Source of the DNA: Candidatus Falkowbacteria bacterium | Lineage (GTDB): Bacteria > Patescibacteriota > Patescibacteriia > CAIXNZ01 | DNA length: 64,000 nt | Direction: 5' to 3' | NCBI GenBank assembly: GCA_963774955.1 | Contig: CAVZGV010000004.1 | Span: 383,779-447,778 of the forward strand | Shown: in pieces, positions 1,116 through 34,196 of the stretch | Layout: the number at the start of each line of letters is the position of its first letter | Position numbering within the stretch: the first letter of the stretch is position 1 | Made by a program: the position numbers and the translations under genes | The notes under the pieces: generated by a model | Seen by the model: the letters and a program-made list of their open reading frames with translations, nothing else | The model's database searches: none | Told to the model about the DNA's origin: nothing

Positions 1116-4100
1116 ATGAGAACTTCAAAAAACAAATTTAAAATATATCTGGCTGTAGTCTCTCTGGCTGCTATGCTTATAAGTACGGCAGGCGCGTCTG
1201 CTGCCACCAGGATCGGCAGCAATATAAACTCTGCCGGTGATCTGACTGTTGACGGTGCTTTGAAATTTACTTCAGGCGCTGCTAACAATTATGTTTTAGC
1301 CAGTGATGCCAGCGGTAATGCCGCCTGGATTTCAGTGGCCACTCTTTTAGATTCTTCTCATGCCAATGTGACTACTAATGATCTGGATGAAGGCACTCTT
1401 AATTTATATTATGATTCGGCAGATGTTGAGACCAGAATTGATAATCGTAGTGGTATTGTCGGTGGTTTTGCTCCGCTTGATGCAGGGTTAAAGGTTCCAA
1501 GTTCATATTTGCCAAATTTAGTAATTACCAATGTCTATGCAGTTGCGGATATTGCTGCCAGGGACTTATTGACCGTTGAAGAAGGCGATGTGGCTGTGGT
1601 TGCTGATGCCGGTTTGTTAGAAAGCCGTTCTTATATTTATGACGGCACAGGCTGGCTGGAATTGAAAGCTCCGGTTGATTTATATTTAGCCGCCGCAAAT
1701 GATCTTTCAGATTTAGGCAATTTCGCTACTGCCAGAACTAATTTGGGTATTGGGACTACAGATATCCCCGAGTTTAACGGTTTGACTTTAAATAGTCTGA
1801 CAGCTGATTCATTTATTTATTCCGGCACGGGTGGATTACTTACCTCAACTGCTGCTCCTTTAGACGGGGAGTTGCTCATTGGTGTTGCTGGCTCGTCTCC
1901 GGTAGTGGCAACTTTAACAGGTACCACAAATCAGGTAGATGTAACCAATGGCGCAGGCTCCATAACTTTATCAACTCCACAAGATATAGATACTAGTGCA
2001 AGTCCACAATTCACAGGCTTAACTTTAAGCGGTACAACACTTTCAATTAACGGAATCGCTTATGCTTGGCCAGCTGCTGATGGCGCCTTGGGGGATGTTT
2101 TAACTACTGACGGTGCCGGCGCTTTAACCTGGACAACTGTGGCCGGTGCAGGTGAAACAAACACAGCTTCAAATGTTAATGTTGGCGGTCAGAGTTTATT
2201 TAAACAAAAAACAGGGGTAGACTTGGAATTCAGGGGCATTAATGCCGCTTCCAATAAGATAGGTATTGCGCTAGATGACCCGAATAATGAAGTAACAATT
2301 GATGTTAATGAAGCTAATTTAACTTTAGATAATCTCGGCGGAACTTTGAGTGAAACTCACGGTGGTACCAATCTGACAACTTATACTAGCGGCGATATTT
2401 TATATGCTTCGGCCGCAGATACTTTAAGTGCCTTACCAATAGGTGGTACTGATGGTTGGGTTTTAACAGTTAATACTGGTGCTCCGGTTTGGCAGGCTTT
2501 ACCTGGGGCAGGAGCAGAAACAGATCCGGTCTTTACTGGAAGCTTTACAGCCGCCGGTGATTTGTTAGTCGGTACAGGAGCAGGAACATATACTGCCGTT
2601 ACAGACGGTACTTCCGGCCAATTTTTAACTACTAACGGTTCAGGCGCTTTGAGCTGGGCAGCAGAAACAGATCCGGTGTATACAGCGTGGGATAAATCAA
2701 CCGGCATATCAATAACCGAATCACAAATATCAGATTTGCAGGCGTATCTGACATCAGAAACAGATTCTGTCTTTACTGGAAGTTTTACAGCCGCCGGTGA
2801 TTTGTTAGTCGGTACAGGAGCAGGAACATATACTGCCGTTACAGACGGTACTTCCGGCCAATTTTTAACTACTAACGGTTCAGGCGCTTTGAGCTGGGCA
2901 GCAGAAACAGATCCGGTGTATACAGCGTGGGATAAATCAACCGGCATATCAATAACCGAATCACAAATATCAGATTTGCAGGCGTATCTGACATCAGAAA
3001 CAGATTCTGTCTTTACTGGAAGTTTTACAGCCGCCGGTGATTTGTTAGTCGGTACAGGAGCAGGAACATATACTGCCGTTACAGACGGTACTTCCGGCCA
3101 ATTTTTAACTACTAACGGTTCAGGCGCTTTGAGCTGGGCAGCAGAAACAGATCCGGTGTATACAGCGTGGGATAAATCAACCGGCATATCAATAACCGAA
3201 TCACAAATATCAGATTTGCAGGCGTATCTGACATCAGAAACAGATTCTGTCTTTACTGGAAGTTTTACAGCCGCCGGTGATTTGTTAGTCGGTACAGGAG
3301 CAGGAACATATACTGCCGTTACAGACGGTACTTCCGGCCAATTTTTAACTACTAACGGTTCAGGCGCTTTGAGCTGGGCAGCAGAAACAGATCCGGTGTA
3401 TACAGCGTGGGATAAATCAACCGGCATATCAATAACCGAATCACAAATATCAGATTTGCAGGCGTATCTGACATCAGAAACAGATTCTGTCTTTACTGGA
3501 AGCTTTACAGCCGCCGGTGATTTGTTAGTCGGTACAGGAGCAGGAACATATACTGCCGTTACAGACGGTACTTCCGGCCAATTTTTAACTACTAACGGTT
3601 CAGGCGCTTTGAGCTGGGCAGCAGAAACAGATCCGGTGTATACAGCGTGGGATAAATCAACCGGCATATCAATAACCGAATCACAAATATCAGATTTGCA
3701 GGCGTATCTGACATCAGAAACAGATTCTGTCTTTACTGGAAGTTTTACAGCCGCCGGTGATTTGTTAGTCGGTACAGGAGCAGGAACATATACTGCCGTT
3801 ACAGACGGTACTTCCGGCCAATTTTTAACTACTAACGGTTCAGGCGCTTTGAGCTGGGCAGCAGAAACAGATCCGGTGTATACAGTGTGGGACAAATCAA
3901 CCGGCATATCAATAACCGAATCACAAATATCAGATTTGCAGACATATGCTCTAAGTGGAGCAAATGGAGACATTACCAGTTTAACCGGGTTGACTACTGC
4001 TCTTGGTCCGACTTATGGCGGTACTGGTTTAGCTACTTATGCTTTAGGCGATATTTTATATGCTTCAGCAGCTAATACTTTATCAGCCTTATCTTCAGGC

Positions 4101-7100
4101 GGAGCTGGTACATATTTGAAATCAGATGGTGCTGGCGGCTTAACTTGGGCTACTCCGGCTGGTAGCGGTACTATTACTGCTGTTGGTGATATAACCACAG
4201 GAGCCGCGTTTACACCTACAGCAGGCGCAGATGGCAATAATTTGTATTTTGAAGGCACAACCGGAAACGGTTTTGAAGTTAATCTGACAGCAGCAGATCC
4301 GGGATCAGATGTGATAGTGACAATCCCTGCAACAACCGGCACATTATTATTGAATACAAATAATTTATCTGACGTATCAAATACAGGAACAGCCAGGACA
4401 AATTTAGGTTTAGGCACGGGAGACAGCCCGCAATTTACAGGATTAACACTGACAAGCGATGAAACATTAAATGCACAGTCAGATTTACGGTTGGCAGATG
4501 CTGATTCATCAAATTGGGCGGCATTCCAGGCGCCAACGACAATTTCTACAAATTATACCTTGACTTTGCCGGCAGATGACGGGACAGCAGGACAATGTTT
4601 GACAACAAGCGACGGCACAGGGACATTAGCCTGGGCAGCTTGCGGAGCTGGAAGTGGAGCAGATACAGCATTATCAAATCTGGCATCAGTAGCCATTAAT
4701 ACATCATTATTACCGGGTACAACAGAATCAATAGCTTTAGGATCAGATTCATTTAACTGGTTGAATTTATACTTAGGGAATGGCGGAGTAGTTTTTGAAG
4801 GCGCAACAGGGGGAGTGGATACAAATGAGACTACCTTGGTAGTGACAGACCCGACAGCAGACCGGACAATAACCTTACCTAATGCAACAGGCACAGTATT
4901 ATTAAATACAAATAATTTATCGGATGTATCAAATACAGGAACGGCGAGAACAAGTTTAGGGTTGGGCACGGGAGATAGCCCGCAATTTACCGGATTAACA
5001 TTAACAAGCGATGAGACATTAAATGCACAGTCAGATTTACGGTTTGCAGATGCTGATTCATCAAATTGGGCAGCTTTCCAGGCGCCAACGACAATTGCAT
5101 CAAATTATACCTTGACCATGCCGGCAGATGACGGCACAGCGCTCCAGTTTTTACAGACTGACGGAAGCGGCGTTTTATCCTGGGCAACCCCAACAGTTAC
5201 ATCTGTAGCCTTTAGTGGCATAACTAATGGCATAAATACAACAGCCACTATGACGGTCGGAAGCGGAGCAACTTTAGCACCGTCAGGAACTGGTATAATA
5301 ACTGCTACCAGATATACAGGGTCAGGTTCTTCAACTAATGAAGTTGACTTAGGAACAGCAGAGGTAGCCGGTACTTTAACCGTAGTTAAGGGCGGTACGG
5401 GAATAACTGATTTTACTGGGGCGACTGGTAGTTTACCTTATTTTAATTCTGAAACTACTATGGATTTTACAAACGCCGGTACTAATAATAAATTCCTTAA
5501 AGGCGTCACAGGAGGAGCTCCAGCTTTTGCTTCAGTCGATTTGAGCAGTCCGGATGTGACAAGCACTTTGCCTATTGTTAGAGGTGGTACTGCTGCTACT
5601 ACGATAGGATCTGCTGGCAGAGTTGTATATAGTACAGGTACGGCTTATGGCACTTCCAGTGCCACAACCGAATTGGGACATATACTTATTTCAGGTACAA
5701 GTGGCACTGGTGCTCCGTCCTGGTTGGCTCAGGGTGCATCGGGGCAATTACTAGTATCAGGTGGGACAAATGTAGCACCGACTTGGACTTCCTTAGGTAG
5801 TGTACCAACTACGTCAAATAATGATGCTACTTTGCGTTCCAATGGTTCAGCTTGGGTTGAAAATACCTCCGTATTGATAAGTTCAACTGGAGGGATATCA
5901 TCCGCGAACGGTTCAGCCCTAACCATAAATTCTGGAACTACGGGTGATTTGGGGATTGGAACGGATGCAAGTATTGAAAATATAAATATAGGTACTGGTG
6001 GTGCCACTAAAACTATTATTTTTGGCAACAGTACTGGAGCAACCTCAGTTGCTATAAATACTGGTACCGGAGCATTAAATCTGGGAACGAATGCAATCGC
6101 TCATATCACAACATTGGGTTCTATAACAGGTGCCGCTTCAACCATAGTTCAATCAGGAACCGGTGACCTTAAAATTGAGACCCAGGGTACTGGCGGTTTA
6201 AAAATTGGTACTAATGCAGTAGCACAGAATATTACAATCGGCAACGGAACCGGAGCAACATCGCTTGTCTTAGAGGCTGGTACAGGCAATATCGATATTG
6301 GTAGCAATGATATTGCCAGGAGTATAAATATAGGTCAAACCTCTACAGCAGCTCAGGCTATTACCATAGGTAATGGTAATACAGGCACAGCAGTGGATAT
6401 AAAAGTCGGTACAGGAGCCTTAAATTTAGGGTCAAATGCTACAGTTCATACTACCACTTTAGGTTCAAATACTAGCACCTCAACCACTACAGTTCAATCA
6501 GGAACCGGCGGACTTAATTTAACTTCTGCAAGTACAGGTATAATAACCCTAGATTCGGGAACCACTGGTAGGATTGATATAGGAACTAATACTGGTGGCA
6601 AGACTATTAATATCGGGACAGGAGCAGCAGCTAATACCCTTAATATTGGTAATAATACTAGCGGCACAGGTACGTATATCAAAGCTGGAAACACCGGCAT
6701 TAATATATCAACTGGCGGGGCAGGGAATATAGACATATTGACTGACTCAACTGGTACTATGCACATTGATACAGGTACATCAGGTACGATAAATTTTGGA
6801 ACTGGCGATAGCGGAAAAACTATTAATATTGGTACCGGTAATGTCGCCAATACAATTAATATTGGTAATTCATCCTATGCTACTGCAATTCAGTTATATG
6901 GTACTGGCGGTGTAAAAATCGGCTCATCGAGTAGCACTGCGATTTTAAATCATTATTCTGGTACAGCTTCTCTGGATTTTGGCGCCACTGCTGCTAATAC
7001 CTGTGATGCCGCCACCATAACAGTGACTGGCGCTGCTGACGGAGATACTGTTACTCTTGGTGTACCTGCTGCTTTAGCCGGAAGCGATGCTAGTCAGAAT

Positions 7101-10201: not shown

Positions 10202-10323
10202 GGTTTAAGCCCTGGACCAGTAATGGTTCAGGGTTTTAAAATTTTTGCTAAAATTAGGAAAATAATTACAAATTAGGTAAAATTTACTTGACAAATTCAT
10301 TTTCATGTTTTAAGCTGAATTAT

Positions 10324-10449
10324 ATGAATTTATTAGACAAAAGCATAATTGAAGAAAATTCCGAGCTATGGCTAGCCAATATAATGGTTTTATTAGTCGT
10401 AGTCGTCTTGGGCACTGTCACAGTGGCTAGAGTTTTAAATATGTTCTAA
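10324..10449 (+). CDS. Small peptide (41 aa, MNLLDKSIIEENSELWLANIMVLLVVVVLGTVTVARVLNMF) with C-terminal TM helix
   Basis: Preceded by TTGACA at 10288-10293 and followed by a terminator. No SD, so likely leaderless. Confidence 0.3.
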   Translation: MNLLDKSIIEENSELWLANIMVLLVVVVLGTVTVARVLNMF

Positions 10450-10465
10450 ACTTACTGATATATTT

Positions 10466-10499
10466 AAAAAAGGCCACTGCTAAAACAGTGGTCTTTTTG
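10466..10499 (+). terminator. Rho-independent terminator
   Basis: aaaaaggccactg-ctaaaa-cagtggtcttttt. Confidence 0.55.
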
Positions 10500-10524: not shown

Positions 10525-10599
10525 GGGGGCGTAGCTCAGTGAAAGAGCAGCGGGCAAACATCCCGCAGGTCGTGGGTTCAATTCCCACCGCCCCTACCA
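10525..10599 (+). tRNA. tRNA gene, isotype undetermined (anticodon loop reads CAAACAT, formally anticodon AAC with A33)
   Basis: By-eye cloverleaf: acceptor GGGGGCG/CGCCCCU, D-arm GCUC-AGUGAAA-GAGC, anticodon stem GCGGG/CCCGC, T-arm GUGGG-UUCAAUU-CCCAC, encoded ACCA. The D-loop lacks G18G19 and position 33 is A, both non-canonical. Confidence 0.55.
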
Positions 10600-10626
10600 T
10601 TTTCCGAAGACAGGTTTTCATATCTT

Positions 10627-10685
10627 GTGGGTGCGAATCCGTCTCCGGCGGGCAATTGCGAGGTTCGAACCCTCGTACGCCCACT
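10627..10685 (+). other. tRNA-like fragment: 7-bp acceptor-like pairing (GUGGGUG/CGCCCAC) plus perfect T-arm (CGAGG-UUCGAAC-CCUCG), but no D or anticodon arms
   Basis: Only ~58 nt with a 25-nt middle segment. Could be a degenerate or pseudo-tRNA or a tRNA-like structural RNA. Confidence 0.25.
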
Positions 10686-10703
10686 TAACATGTTTTTTAG
10701 TGT

Positions 10704-10777
10704 CAGGGGATAGCTTAAGTAAAGCGCCAAAACTACCCTTTTGGAGACTGTTGGTTCAAATCCAGCTCCCCTGACCA
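10704..10777 (+). tRNA. tRNA gene, isotype undetermined (anticodon arm cannot form a 5-bp stem with a 7-nt loop)
   Basis: Acceptor CAGGGGA/UCCCCUG, U8A9, T-arm GUUGG-UUCAAAU-CCAGC, encoded ACCA. The anticodon region CCAAA-ACUACCCU-UUUGG gives an 8-nt loop (or a 6-bp stem with a 6-nt loop). The D-loop lacks GG. Confidence 0.5.
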
Positions 10778-10805: not shown

Positions 10806-11078
10806 ATGCCAGCGGAAAAGGGACCAGATCATGTAAGCGTAGCGGAGTTTTTTGCCCTGGAAAGTTTTGGAGACAGGCTGGCTGACCAACTTGACCGGCT
10901 AAATACTCGGCATAGCAATTATTGCCAGGAAACAGTCGCGCTCAAGCAGTCATTGGCTAATGGCGGTCGACGCCAAGAATTGAGGCAAGCACGGTTGCAT
11001 GATTTAGAAACGCGACTTTTACCCCAGTTACAGGCACGCCTGCATTCATTGCAGGATCAAAAAATCGGGCTTTATTAA
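10806..11078 (+). CDS. Hypothetical small protein (90 aa), GC-richer, coiled-coil-like
   Basis: Consensus SD (aaaaggagggttacacATG). Local GC is about 50% against a ~34% background. Followed by a terminator. Confidence 0.5.
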   Translation: MPAEKGPDHVSVAEFFALESFGDRLADQLDRLNTRHSNYCQETVALKQSLANGGRRQELRQARLHDLETRLLPQLQARLHSLQDQKIGLY

Positions 11079-11087
11079 GGCCCAGAG

Positions 11088-11114
11088 AAAGCTCCCTTCA
11101 CCGGGAGCTTTTTA
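11088..11114 (+). terminator. Rho-independent terminator
   Basis: aaagctccc-ttcacc-gggagcttttt. Confidence 0.55.
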
Positions 11115-11411
11115 AATTAATTTGTGCTATAATATAAGTGACCAGGCAATTAGCTTATGTTCTAGGACAATCTTATTTAATGGGAGGCTCATATTTTATA
11201 GCGCCGTGGCGTTATAATGCGGCCACCCACTTGATTCGCAGCTGGAAACATCAAGCTTATTGCCTGTTCATAAAAATCAGCCCTTTGTTTGTAAAGGACT
11301 GATTTTTTATTTGAAGACAAATATCCCCAGATTTGGGCTTAAATTATAGTCTAAAGGCTGAAATTATGCTAAAATAAAGAGAGGATACTTAAGTATTTTT
11401 CTGAAATTTTT

Positions 11412-27335: not shown

Positions 27336-27348
27336 TTATTTATAATAT

Positions 27349-27422
27349 CGGGGCGAGAGGATTTGAACCTCCGATCTTCGGACCCCCAGCCCGACGCCTT
27401 AGACCAACTGGGCCACGCCCCG
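27349..27422 (-). tRNA. tRNA-Pro (anticodon GGG)
   Basis: Reverse complement: CGGGGCG-TG-GCCC..GGC-G-TCGGG-CTGGGGG-TCCGA-AGATC-GGAGG-TTCAAAT-CCTCT-CGCCCCG. No CCA is encoded. Confidence 0.8.
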
Positions 27423-27658
27423 TGATATATTCTCAGTTTTGTTATTTGGCGTTGCAGTTGGTCTACAGTCCATAAAATTAATACATCCCTAACTGCTTGC
27501 CTGCCGAAGCATCAAGTGCGAAGGCAGGGGCCACGCCCCGTGATATATTCTCAGTTTTGTTATTTGGCGTTGCAGTTGGTCTACAGTCCATAAAATTAAT
27601 ACATCCCTAACTGCTTGCCTGCCGAAGCATCAAGTGCGTAGGCAGGGGCCACGCCCCG
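27423..27658. repeat. 2 x 118-bp tandem direct repeat immediately 5' of tRNA-Pro(GGG), each unit ending in a copy of the tRNA 5'-terminal 13 nt
   Basis: Units 27423-27540 and 27541-27658 are identical apart from one mismatch (gcgaagg vs gcgtagg). The unit contains the hairpins cctgcc..ggcagg and gcagttgg..ccaactgc. Confidence 0.85.
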
Positions 27659-27785
27659 TTAGATTCGTTTATCGCCTGTTTGCAGGCGGTTTTTTCGGTT
27701 TCGATGCTGTATCGTTTAGCGGTTATCGTTAATCGTGATATTTTAATATTACTTTAGAGTAGTTTAAAAATCAACCGTTATGAAC

Positions 27786-30183: not shown

Positions 30184-32269
30184 ATGCCCCGTGAGTATAC
30201 ACTAGAAAAAACAAGAAATATCGGCATTATGGCCCATATTGACGCTGGTAAAACAACGGTTACCGAGCGTGTTTTATTTTATACCGGTAAAAAACATAAA
30301 ATTGGTGAAGTTCATGAAGGGGCTGCTGAAATGGATTGGATGGAACAGGAAAAAGAAAGAGGCATTACCATTACTGCCGCTGCTACTACTTGTTTTTGGA
30401 AAGATCACCGTATTAATATCATTGATACTCCCGGTCACGTTGATTTTACGGTAGAAGTCGAAAGGTCATTGCGCGTTTTAGACGGTGCAGTGGCGGTTTT
30501 TGACGGTTCTCAGGGTGTAGAACCTCAATCAGAAACAGTTTGGCATCAGGCAGCCAAATATGATGTTCCCAGGATTGCTTTTGTAAATAAAATGGATAAA
30601 ATGGGAGCAGATTTTTATATGACGTTTGGATTCAATTGCTGAACGTTTGTCAACTCATGCTGCGGCAGTGCAATTGCCTATCGGTGCTGAAGAAACTTTC
30701 TGTGGTCTGGTTGATTTATTAGATCGTCAAGGCTTATAAATTTGAAGGTGAATATGGCCAAAATGTTATAGAAATATCAATCCCGGAAGATATGAAAGAT
30801 AAGGTAGAAAAATACCGCAAAATTTTACTGGAAAAAGTTGCGGAAAATGATGAGGATATGATGAATAAATATTTAGCCGGACGAAGAATTGGATATTGAT
30901 CAGATTACGTCAGGTAATGCGTAAAGCTACAATATCTAATGATTTTCATCCGGTTTTGTGCGGTTCAGCTTTGAAAAATATCGGTGTACAACGAATGCTT
31001 GATGCGGTGGTATGCTTATTTACCATCACCGCTTGATGTACCTCCGATTATAGGTAAAAATCCTGATACAGGCAATGAGGAAAAAAGAGAAAGCTACTGA
31101 TGAAGCGCCTTTTGCCGCACTTGCCTTTAAATTAGCCACTGATCCTTTTGTCGGTAAATTAGTCTTTTTTCGTGTTTATTCGGGCAGTCTAAAAGCAGGT
31201 TCTTATGTTTTAAATACCAAGACAGGAAATAAAGAAAGAATTGGTCGTATTGTACGCTTGCATGCTAATTCCCGAGAAGATGTTGATGAGGTTTTTTCCG
31301 GAGAAATTGCAGCAGCTATTGGTTTGAAAAATACTGTAACGGGCAATACTTTGTGCGATGAAAAATACCCTGATAATTTTGGAAGAAATTATTTTTCCGG
31401 AACCGGTTATTTCCGTGGCGATTGAACCAAAAACCAAGGCTGACCAGGAAAAAATGGGCATGGCTATGCAGAAATTGGCCGAAGAAGATCCGACTTTTAA
31501 GATTCACACTGATGAGGAAACCTTACAGACTATTATTTCCGGTATGGGCGAATTACATTTGGATATTATTGTTGACCGTATGAAAAGAGAATTTAAAGTT
31601 GAAGCCAATGTCGGTGCGCCTCAGGTTGCTTATAAAGAAACCATCAAAGGTGGCGGCTGAAGGCGAAGGTAAATATATCAAACAGTCAGGTGGTCGTGGT
31701 CAATATGGTCATTGTTGGTTAAAAGTTGAACCGCGTGATCGAGGTGAAGGCTTTGAATTTGTTGATGAAATTAAAGGCGGCGTTATTCCCCGGGAATTTA
31801 TTCCTGCCGATTGAAAAAGGTGTTAAAGAATCTTTAACTAAAGGTATTTTGGCCGGTTATCCGGTTGTTGATATTAAAGGCTACTGTATATGACGGTTCT
31901 TATCATGACGTTGATTCTTCTGAAGTAGCTTTTAAAATTGCCGGTTCTATGGCTTTTTTTGAAGCCGCCAGAAAGGCTAAGCCAATTATCTTGGAACCGA
32001 TTATGAAGATTGAAGTAACTACCCCGGAGCAATTTATGGGTGATGTTATTGGTGATTTGAATTCCAAACGCGCTCAGATTTCTCAAATGACCGAGAAAGT
32101 TAAATTAAAGGTAATTGACGGTTTAGTTCCTCTTTCAGAAATGTTTGGTTATGCCACCTCTTTAAGGTCTTTGACTCAGGGACGTGCAAATTATGCCATG
32201 GAATTTGATCATTATCAGGAAGTTCCATCTAATGTTGCGCAAAAGATTATTGAAGGAAAAAAGAAATAA
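30184..32269 (+). pseudogene. fusA: Elongation factor G with at least 8 frameshifts between ~30620 and ~31870 (N-terminal G domain and C-terminal domains intact)
   Basis: ORF-track pieces 30184-30642, 31075-31425, 31358-31660, 31599-31814 and 31865-32269 are all EF-G in different frames. Manual translation of 30640-31075 gives further EF-G segments ([120 protein letters not shown]), each in a shifted frame. Confidence 0.85.
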
Positions 32270-32293
32270 TATATAATTATCATTTTATAAACA

Positions 32294-32325
32294 AAAACAC
32301 CCCGTATAAGGGGTGTTTTTGTTTA
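32294..32325 (+). terminator. Rho-independent terminator after fusA
   Basis: aaaaacacccc-gtataa-ggggtgtttttgttt. Confidence 0.6.
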
Positions 32326-32477
32326 TTGCCTTGGTTATTCCTAGGTCATAATTTTTGCAAGCGGGTATCAGAGGTGTTTAGTCAATATAATTGTGGTTTA
32401 ACATTCTCTTCTTTAATATTTTAACTAAAGTAATTATATTTGATTGTTAATAATAAGTGTATAACTCTGGGGACTAG

Positions 32478-32536
32478 TATGTAGATAACCATGTGTAAAA
32501 CTATGTGGGTAAATATGTGCAAAATTTGTCTATAAT
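32478..32536 (+). promoter_or_regulatory. Four phased 12-nt direct repeats (ATGTrnnTAAAy; weak DnaA-box-like TGTGGGTAA) abutting a TATAAT -10 element
   Basis: atgtagataacc / atgtgtaaaact / atgtgggtaaat / atgtgcaaaatt, then tgtctataat. Confidence 0.35.
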
Positions 32537-32844
32537 TAGCTAAAAATGGACTTGACGCTATTTGGGGTATAAGTTATTATAAGCATACGAACCCTACTTG
32601 ATTACGAGTTAAGTATCATTTTCTCAAATTTTTTGAGATGGGTACTTAGTTCAGTGTCTAAAGCGGGGTTTTTTTGTTGTCATAAAAAAATTGCAAGATA
32701 TATGGGATTTGAAAAGGAAACGCTACACTGTTTCCTTTTTATGTTGTCACCCGGGCTTAAAGGGAGGTAACTAAAGATGGTTAAAGGTTTTAAAGGATAT
32801 TGGAAGATCAAAGAAGCAACATTTAAAAAAGGAGGTGTTCTAAA

Positions 32845-33723
32845 ATGGAAGCGAAAAAGCTGGTGATGAATAATCAGATTCCTCGAGATTTTGATCTCTT
32901 GGATCCGGAAACTCGGCAACTGGCTTTAGCGATCGGCGGGCGCAAAGTTAATGGCACCAATTTTCATTTGGGTCATTTGGCCAAGAACTTAAAACGTTCT
33001 GAAGTCGCAGTCTGGGCAGCCAGACGAGTGATCCGTAGCGAGGCCATCGGTATCAACTGGGAACATCTTCTTGATGATATCGTTGAAACTTGTCTCAAGG
33101 AGTTCCACTATGAAACCTATCGTCATTTAAAGCGCATGCACGGGATTATGGCAGAAGAATTGAAGTACTTGCAACATCATCAGCCGGCGCAGATGGATGA
33201 TCGCGGCATCAAAGAGTTCCGAGAGATGGAGCATTTTCCTCTGGGTGAGGAAGAACAAGCTCAGATGAAATGGGCTTCTTCATTCCACGATATCTGTCGC
33301 ATGAGTTACAAGGTTTCTTACTGGAAGAAGAAAGGGAAATTTACTCCCTTGCAAAGAAAACAACTTGATTTTCATGCTCGGAACTTCTTTTTCCTGGGAC
33401 AATTGTTTAATGTTTACCAGGAAGTCATTGCCTTGTCAGTCTTGCATCACTATCCCAATAAAGGCTATCCTGACAACGGAATTATCGCTAAGTTAACGCC
33501 TTTTTTGGCGCAGCCTAAATTCCAGTACATGTTGAATTGGCTGGTTACCAACGACGTTTATACTGGTGCAACCGATGATCGAGGCTACCGAGATCAGCCA
33601 TACACCCATGAGCAGGCAATTGGCCAAACAATGCCTACTGAATTGGGTCCTGTTGGCATGGCTTGGGTACCGTTTATCGAAGCGATAAAACAACCAGGTG
33701 ACAAGGTGGTTTGCCCCGCTTAA
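32845..33723 (+). CDS. Hypothetical protein (292 aa), GC-richer, possible HD-type metal-dependent phosphohydrolase
   Basis: Consensus SD (aaaaaggaggtgttctaaaATG). H..H / HD / HH / D residues spaced as in HD-domain proteins (FHLGH, FHDICR, VLHHY, ATDD). GC about 47%. Inserted between fusA and tuf. Confidence 0.5.
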   Translation: MEAKKLVMNNQIPRDFDLLDPETRQLALAIGGRKVNGTNFHLGHLAKNLKRSEVAVWAARRVIRSEAIGINWEHLLDDIVETCLKEFHYETYRHLKRMHGIMAEELKYLQHHQPAQMDDRGIKEFREMEHFPLGEEEQAQMKWASSFHDICRMSYKVSYWKKKGKFTPLQRKQLDFHARNFFFLGQLFNVYQEVIALSVLHHYPNKGYPDNGIIAKLTPFLAQPKFQYMLNWLVTNDVYTGATDDRGYRDQPYTHEQAIGQTMPTELGPVGMAWVPFIEAIKQPGDKVVCPA

Positions 33724-33727
33724 CCAG

Positions 33728-33782
33728 TCAAGGGCCTCTCTTACTCGGACTTTAAGTCTGAGAGGAGAGGGCCCTTGACTTT
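33728..33782. terminator. Long perfect inverted repeat (bidirectional terminator-like)
   Basis: gtcaagggcctctc..ttactcggactttaagtctgagag..gagagggcccttgac. Confidence 0.5.
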
Positions 33783-33825
33783 CTTTTTAATTTAAGGTAA
33801 GTTATATATAGTTTTTTAAAAGATT

Positions 33826-33866
33826 TGCCCCGCAAAGTGGGGTCAGCCTTCGGCGGAAAACTTTTT
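33826..33866 (-). repeat. Third, more degenerate copy of the twin-hairpin element (no adjacent tRNA)
   Basis: Minus strand reads GTTTTCCGCCGAAGGCTGACCCCACTTTGCGGGGCAAATCT, the same architecture as the elements 3' of both tRNA-Pro genes. Confidence 0.4.
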
Positions 33867-33872
33867 TATTTT

Positions 33873-34196
33873 ATGAAGAATTTAAAAAGAATATTGGATC
33901 TGATTCGTAAAACAGGCGATAAATATATCTTCGAAGATGATAATGAGGGTATTTTTGTGGTCTTAGCTTTAGATGACTATGAAAATTATATTTTTAAGAA
34001 TAATCAGCTAAAGAATTTGTCTGAAGAGGAACTTTTAAATAAAATTAATAAGGATATCGCTATCTGGAAATCATCTCAAGAAGATAAAATTGTTGATCAG
34101 TCGTGGCAAGATTTGCCTGTTGAGGAAAATGAAAAAAAGCACTCGGTTGAAGATGAAGATCGTTATTATTTTGAGCCGGAAGAAGATGAAGATTAA
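33873..34196 (+). CDS. Hypothetical acidic protein (107 aa; MKNLKRILDL...EPEEDED)
   Basis: Start placed at the internal Met because the longer ORF from 33825 runs through the repeat element. Highly acidic C-terminus. Confidence 0.45.
   Translation: MKNLKRILDLIRKTGDKYIFEDDNEGIFVVLALDDYENYIFKNNQLKNLSEEELLNKINKDIAIWKSSQEDKIVDQSWQDLPVEENEKKHSVEDEDRYYFEPEEDED

Follow-up and report, generated by a model that had tools for sequence, protein, structure and literature searches.

When genomes are annotated, a tRNA gene whose anticodon loop is broken is usually set aside as a pseudogene. The locus described here raises the question of what such genes are when they are under clear selection, as two of them are in a 64,000-nucleotide stretch of DNA (the window) from a Parcubacteria (CPR) chromosome. 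The window carries EF-Tu, a ribosomal protein cluster and SecY, and matches of its PilB/GspE protein in a protein database search come from Parcubacteria, Buchananbacteria and other Patescibacteria. ARAGORN reports four tRNA genes in it: two ordinary tRNA-Pro genes, both canonical and with GG in the D-loop (CAGTTGGT), and two aberrant genes on the plus strand, called tL1 (10525-10599) and tL3 (10704-10777) here. Judged from sequence comparison, tL1 and tL3 are a small family of tRNA-derived RNAs in one CPR lineage that is real, selected and unusual.

An earlier note on this DNA had described two tRNA-like genes at these positions, and its account of their loops is borne out by the programs used here. 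ARAGORN labels tL1 'tRNA-Val (aac)' and tL3 'tRNA-??? (ac)'. Against the Rfam tRNA model, which has a gathering score of 29, they reach 59.8 bits (E = 2e-10) and 50.0 bits (E = 1e-07), respectively. Folded alone, each forms a cloverleaf, tL1 at -34.2 kcal/mol (z = -3.4 versus shuffles) and tL3 at -24.3 kcal/mol (z = -2.7 versus shuffles). The anticodon arm of tL1 reads GCGGG-CAAACAU-CCCGC and is aligned by Rfam with a 7-nt loop, A33 and the formal anticodon AAC. That of tL3 reads CCAAA-ACUACCCU-UUUGG, where the Rfam alignment has 8 nt in place of the 7 expected by the model and the lowest-energy fold gives a 6-bp stem with a 6-nt loop, the two forms that the note had allowed. Neither D-loop holds the GG seen in the tRNA-Pro genes of the window: the loop of tL1 is AGUGAAA, and the D arm of tL3 has a 4-bp stem, GCUU/AAGC, with the 5-nt loop AAGUA. 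CCA is encoded in both genes. No alternative register yields a 7-nt loop with U33. Reading tL1 from the opposite strand was tried and rejected, because the plus strand has GTTCAAT and CCA, while the reverse complement gives U33 and GUU yet has U37 and a T-loop that is not that of a tRNA.

The body of tL1 is otherwise tRNA-like. Positions U8, A14, G15, C48, U54 and A58 are retained and the core fold should therefore form, whereas the absence of G18G19 and the replacement of C by A at position 56 in two orthologues suggest that the elbow contact, in which G18G19 of a canonical tRNA meets U55 and C56 of the T-loop, is relaxed.

Relatives of the locus were found through the protein database and the DNA was recovered for several of them, other contigs having none or reaching too short a distance upstream; they are labelled by locus, with PilB identity to the window as the distance scale. 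A search for synteny in representative genomes with PilB/GspE gave a best match of 51% identity and no locus with similar tRNAs. Four independent relative assemblies with 83-91% PilB identity, however, have a cluster of one to three units at the same genomic position. All three units are present in L081 (91% PilB identity, a MAG from NCBI), where they are labelled 'Val aac', 'Thr ggt' and '??? at'. Units 1 and 3 are present in L085 (83%, Logan) and L158 (84%, Logan), and L082 (86%, JGI) has unit 3 only, unit 1 being cleanly deleted. L083, L084 and L086, at 74-76% PilB identity, have no unit at this position. The deletion of tL1 in L082 and the lack of a cluster at this position in the three more distant loci indicate that the cluster is dispensable. 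A covariance model of tL1 found no further copies in 21 sources.

The divergence of these genomes makes the conservation of the units informative. At the fourfold-degenerate sites of pilB, the gene next to the cluster, identity between them is only 35-49%, which is near saturation, and the spacers between the units cannot be aligned across the relatives. The copies of tL1 are 73-93% identical to each other. In their cloverleaf 97.6% of the cells are paired and both sides have changed in 7 of 21 pairs, a pairing score that was reached by none of 500 shuffles and by no slid control. The cloverleaf of tL3 has 102 of 105 cells paired and eight compensated pairs. These samples are small, four sequences for tL1 and five for tL3, and the sequences are related and not independent, which limits the statistics. 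Covariation of this kind nevertheless shows, at the level of sequence, that the fold of both genes is under purifying selection.

The constraint falls on different parts of the two genes. In tL1 the anticodon arm is the fixed part: 15 nt are invariant, with the core CGGGCAAACATCCCG unchanged in all copies, and the U33 rule is broken in every one of them (A33 in 4/4, formal anticodon AAC in 4/4). In tL3 it is the acceptor, D and T arms that are conserved, and the anticodon arm evolves freely. Its loops across the set are ACTACCCT, ACTATCCT, ATTACCAT, TTACAAA and GCAATAC, thus 7 or 8 nt long. Its anticodon stem has 5 or 7 bp, and the copy in L082 carries a long variable arm. Three copies, that of the window and two orthologues, have an 8-nt loop, and UACC occurs in two of these three.

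The earlier note had counted two genes and missed a third unit between them. The 104-nt spacer separating tL1 from tL3 in the window is a truncated copy of the middle tRNA of L081. This unit (10627..10684, plus strand) consists of a 7-bp acceptor stem, GUGGGUG/CGCCCAC, a short central hairpin and a T arm with the loop UUCGAAC; it has neither D arm nor CCA and folds at -25.3 kcal/mol. It aligns with the intact 'tRNA-Thr (ggt)' at 4200-4272 of L081, with the 3' end GCCCACTTAA common to both, and is absent from L085, L158 and L082. In the window, absence of constraint, the mark of a pseudogene, applies to this middle unit only.

Also missed by the note was the kind of stem that carries the loop of tL1. 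Three G:C pairs of initiator type at positions 29-31:39-41 are invariant in the four copies and identical to the stem of the E. coli initiator tRNA. With the L085 copy of tL1 as query, all 5426 E. coli genomes searched gave matches to tRNA-Met, the median number of places in a genome being four; no E. coli match was obtained with the copy of the window. The one match examined, obtained with the L085 query, is one of three tRNA-Met genes that stand side by side, and its sequence is that of the initiator tRNA of metZWV. Between the two, the stem CGGGC/CCCG, positions 39-50 and A72-A73-CCA are identical. The resemblance ends elsewhere. The 11:24 pair is C:G in all copies of tL1 and not the A11:U24 of initiators, and the CAU of the loop stands at positions 36-38 with AAC at 34-36. 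At 1:72, a position left unpaired in initiators, the four copies have G:U, A:U, G·A and G:C. The loop also fits the pattern of identity elements in valine tRNAs, with C32, A35, C36 and A37 together with A73. By its sequence, tL1 is thus an initiator-type anticodon stem combined with a valine-like loop.

The acceptor end of tL3 is of proline type, with C1:G72 and A73. In a BLAST search against phage tRNAs, the 3' half of tL3 showed 93.5% identity with phage tRNA-Pro over 31 nt. The gene lacks G35 and G36, the bases read by ProRS. The same BLAST search gave no isotype signal for tL1, many types being equally similar. A phage origin, which the note had offered as one option, found no support in these comparisons or in viral scans: tL3 had no matches there, and the 69 matches of a 15-mer from tL1 are all outside tRNAs and hence attributable to chance. 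A metagenome scan with the conserved 5' half of tL3 gave two unrelated loci that hold the 5' fragment only and form no cloverleaf.

The 8-nt loop of tL3 had been compared in the note with those of frameshift suppressors, and the window does hold a gene with frameshifts. The fusA gene (30184-32269, plus strand), part of an S12-S7-EF-G-EF-Tu operon, is broken into about ten pieces, each of which is still well-conserved EF-G. Full-length EF-G proteins for comparison came from the representative search, an earlier homologue search having given short fragments only, and a frameshift-aware alignment to them shows exactly ten single-base insertions (+1) and no deletions. Close relatives read through the first four sites, the only ones that their sequences reach, and no other broken genes were found in the window. 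No motif is common to the sites, several of which fall within short runs of one base. When every in-frame four-base codon was listed in the allowed interval of each junction, no codon was common to more than four of the ten. GGUA, which corresponds to the anticodon UACC of tL3, fits three junctions, UUUG (CAAA in tL1) fits three and neither fits the other four. With no shared four-base codon and no matching loops, a link between suppression by tL1 or tL3 and the shifts in fusA is not supported. The insertions are more likely an assembly error or a (recent) pseudogene than programmed frameshifting.

The same operon is unusual in another respect. Between fusA and tuf it contains an insertion in an otherwise conserved gene order, made up of 560 nt without an open frame (32267-32826) and two ORFs of 292 and 123 aa (32845-34196); the 292-aa ORF matched no Pfam family. 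Elsewhere in the window, at 27410-27664, a 118-nt unit stands in tandem with 99-100% identity, in two full copies and the start of a third. Each unit opens with the first 13 nt of the tRNA-Pro(GGG) gene on the minus strand at 27348-27422. The repeat could be the trace of an integration site or a duplication made in assembly.

Several explanations of the two genes can be weighed on this evidence. That they are decaying tRNA pseudogenes, as the note had suggested, or artefacts of a poor assembly is very improbable. Their non-canonical features and the genuine truncation of the middle unit would fit such a view, as would the fusA insertions and the 118-nt tandem duplication, which are other oddities of this assembly. 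But decay does not account for compensatory changes in both genes and an invariant tL1 arm where neutral sites are nearly saturated, and the genes are for this reason not regarded as pseudogenes. Nor are the loops errors of assembly or sequencing, because they recur in independent assemblies from NCBI, JGI and Logan, CAAACAU in four and the 8-nt loops in three. It is unlikely, though less so, that tL1 is a working elongator tRNA-Val(AAC) with an unmodified A34 that reads GUN, and tL3 a decoder or +1 suppressor. The loop of tL1 is fixed, it carries the valine set A35, C36, A37 and A73, and fold and CCA are intact; three copies of tL3 share a loop of 8 nt, two of them with UACC, and fusA requires ten +1 shifts. 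Yet features of routine decoding are missing from the pair: U33, which is near-universal, in tL1, the 7-nt loop in tL3 of the window and G18G19 in both. CPR bacteria also appear to have no gene for A34 tRNA-Arg(ACG), the carrier of inosine wobble (PMC8629427). Together with A33 and the missing G18G19, this makes an inosine-wobble or A34 valine decoder unlikely, so that the 'A34 Val tRNA' of the note stands as a formal description of AAC and hardly as a function. Moreover, tL1 is deleted in L082, and the tL3 loop, 7 or 8 nt long, presents another triplet in every relative, so that tL3 is no conserved reader of any particular codon. A suppressor is opposed by the same differences between orthologous loops and by the ten fusA junctions, of which no more than four share a four-base codon and four fit neither GGUA nor UUUG. 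Among the options listed in the note, tRNA-like RNAs with another role fit the evidence best.

What that role might be depends partly on the surroundings of the cluster. On the plus strand, the region 5' of the leader holds a 2033-aa protein, an unknown protein and NDK, followed by small ORFs. Then come a promoter-like element, a 41-aa ORF, a terminator and the tRNA-like cluster, and 3' of the cluster a 90-aa ORF with its RBS, a second terminator, a conserved RNA element and the type IV pilus operon. The promoter-like element (10288..10316, plus strand), read from the sequence and with a presumed function, consists of TTGACA, 17 nt and TAAGCT. It escapes a consensus scanner because TAAGCT agrees with the consensus at only three of six positions; motif and spacing are found again in L081, L082, L085 and L084. 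The small ORF has its ATG 7 nt beyond the end of this element, giving a leaderless or near-leaderless transcript. The only promoter-like match adjoining the cluster ends one base before tL1 and cannot serve it, because the start would fall inside the acceptor stem.

The 41-aa ORF (10324..10449, plus strand; MNLLDKSIIEENSELWLANIMVLLVVVVLGTVTVARVLNMF) is hydrophobic and rich in valine, and its product is predicted to be a membrane peptide. It is conserved at the protein level in L081, L082 and L085 and more distantly in L084, and is called as a gene on independent contigs. The terminator scan places an intrinsic terminator, a hairpin with a T run, at 10467..10498 (plus strand). Its arms, GGCCACUG and CAGUGGUC, can alternatively pair with the segment GGCACUGUCACAGUGGCU in the 3' part of the ORF. 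With energies that are nearly equal, this pairing wins over the local hairpins in L081 and L085 and loses to them in the window and L082. The arrangement is conserved in the relatives, and one may speculate that the leader at 10288-10498 is a possible attenuator.

Beyond the cluster, the 90-aa helical ORF (10806..11078, plus strand) has a strong RBS, AAGGAGGG. It starts 29 nt past the tL3 CCA and is probably co-transcribed with tL3. Relatives have ORFs of 73-89 aa at this position, including L084 and L086, which have no tRNA-likes. The 90-aa ORF matched no Pfam family, and the search returned no homologue except itself. An intrinsic terminator found by the terminator scan at 11086..11113 (plus strand) closes the short transcription unit.

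Just 5' of the gene for the type IV pilus ATPase lies a structured RNA of about 130 nt (11139-11269, plus strand). It has a promoter-like element of its own (TGCTATAAT at 11125-11133), and its terminator lies at about 11276-11307. Conservation is strong across the five related loci (the window, L081, L082, L085 and L158), with 43 predicted pairs of which five are compensated. The RNA matched no Rfam family and may be a riboswitch or a small RNA that serves the pilus operon. In L082, a 47-aa ORF, a radical-SAM protein and a nitroreductase are placed between this element and pilB (2695-4847). The set resembles small peptide-modification genes and is absent from the window.

The position of the cluster between a terminator and an RBS, 29 nt after CCA, and the lack of a promoter of its own would also suit tRNA-shaped processing or stability signals, a kind of punctuation at which RNase P and 3' nucleases would separate the leader RNA from the 90-aa message, the excised RNAs then having no role. 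Such signals would need only what the processing enzymes see, and tL3 keeps just these parts, namely the acceptor stem and the T and D arms, its anticodon arm being subject to drift; the number of units varies from one to three. The complete invariance of 15 nt in the anticodon arm of tL1 has no place in this explanation, and L084 and L086 retain the same flanking genes without any units; we regard it as improbable, to about the same degree as decoding. Somewhat less probable again is that the units are decoys for anticodon-loop nucleases, or resistant back-ups against them, with loops that reflect the conflict. Accessory tRNAs with changes in the loop have been predicted to resist nucleases, and a VapC nuclease cleaves initiator tRNA (PMC10264068). 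An accessory tRNA operon that is induced by stress has also been described (PMC8421152). The initiator-type stem of tL1 with its changed loop could answer a cutter such as VapC, and the hypervariable anticodon arm of tL3 on a conserved body is what such a conflict could leave behind. However, no nuclease or toxin gene is present in the window, and back-up tRNAs must decode, which is unlikely with 8-nt loops and A33. Finally, tL1 might be an alternative initiator-type tRNA. The stem that licenses the initiator for the P site would be joined to a valine anticodon, and the RNA would either start translation at GUU/GUN or act as a regulator by occupying the P site. Stalling of ribosomes on the valine-rich leader ORF, with bypass of the terminator, would switch it on. 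A parallel is found in engineered tRNA-fMet with a mutated anticodon, which is charged with valine and initiates at valine codons. A search for GTT start codons after RBS-like motifs gave no signal, in a test too crude to be informative, and we consider this idea a long shot, only a little above the pseudogenes and artefacts.

The reading towards which we lean, with some reserve, is that tL1, tL3 and the truncated unit are a clade-specific cluster of selected tRNA-derived RNAs with a non-standard role. The cluster, having no promoter of its own, would be transcribed by read-through from the promoter of the leaderless small ORF past the possible attenuator, and the units would be excised as tRNAs are, by RNase P and 3' trimming. 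Selection maintains tL1 and tL3 as L-shaped RNAs that end in CCA. Probably tL1 acts through its fixed anticodon arm and is still recognised by a partner reading this arm. By the textbook identity rules ValRS would be the most likely partner, with the P site of the ribosome or a protein specific for initiators as the alternative. Likewise, tL3 probably acts through its acceptor and T half, with the proline-type C1:G72 and A73, and not by codon reading. Carrier of an amino acid, regulator and decoy are the candidate cellular roles. A search of about 40 ORFs in the window for partner genes (a Fem-type transferase, a synthetase paralogue or a tRNA nuclease) gave none, and neither a T-box nor any Rfam family besides tRNA was found in the window. 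Complementarity between the tL1 loop and nearby start regions or the neighbouring RNA element is at most 5-6 nt and is not conserved.

CPR bacteria have minimal genomes and a translation apparatus that is already unusual. If the units are charged but kept off the ribosome, or act in the P site, they would be an addition to a very short list of bacterial tRNA-derived RNAs that do not decode, and tRNA sequencing of CPR enrichments has well-defined targets in tL1 and tL3.

A comparison with known systems gives a graded picture. The initiator tRNA-fMet shares with tL1 the stem CGGGC/CCCG, an identity that in L085 extends across the variable loop and into the T stem; the 1:72 pair of tL1 is weak or mismatched in three of the four copies. 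Unlike tRNA-fMet, tL1 has CAU at 36-38, A33, C11:G24 in place of A:U and, in one copy, G1:C72. Suppressors of the sufD and SufJ type (PMC4238358) have an 8-nt loop, as do tL3 of the window and two orthologues, but length and sequence of the tL3 loop are not conserved and no four-base codon recurs at the fusA sites. Taken together, tL1 and tL3 do not have the full set of properties that define canonical decoders, frameshift suppressors or an initiator tRNA.

The staphylococcal tRNA-Gly species that serve outside protein synthesis are extra copies with a retained acceptor identity, and altered D- and T-loop elements keep them off the ribosome. Their anticodon loop is the normal one for glycine and their partners are Fem transferases, whereas no Fem transferase is present in this window. 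These non-proteinogenic tRNAs, which are used for peptidoglycan bridges, are cited in the work on tRNA-Other of Bacillus cereus, a pseudo-tRNA with a regulatory role (PMC3399842). tRNA-Other is reportedly poorly aminoacylated, not associated with polysomes and dispensable (PMC3399842). Like the genes described here, it is a tRNA-shaped, non-canonical gene, and it has been recruited to a non-translational role. Its anticodon is that of a normal tRNA-Trp and has a T-box leader as its target, and the gene flanks a genomic island, while the present cluster has no T-box that could be found, loops with A33 or 8 nt and a place in a CPR lineage.

The trn operon of Anabaena (PMC8421152) and phage tRNA clusters (PMC10264068) resemble the locus in being clustered, non-essential and variable in content, with some aberrant members. 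In such accessory arrays the genes are co-transcribed, which is presumed here, and they comprise up to dozens of mostly normal, chargeable tRNAs, in contrast to the one to three units of this locus, among which the aberrant ones persist. In both tL1 and tL3 the tRNA fold is kept while elements needed by the ribosome are lost, as is characteristic of non-translational pseudo-tRNAs. By analogy, these pseudo-tRNAs, tRNA-Other and the peptidoglycan tRNA-Gly, are the nearest relatives in kind of tL1 and tL3, and accessory operons and nuclease-evading phage tRNAs are looser parallels.
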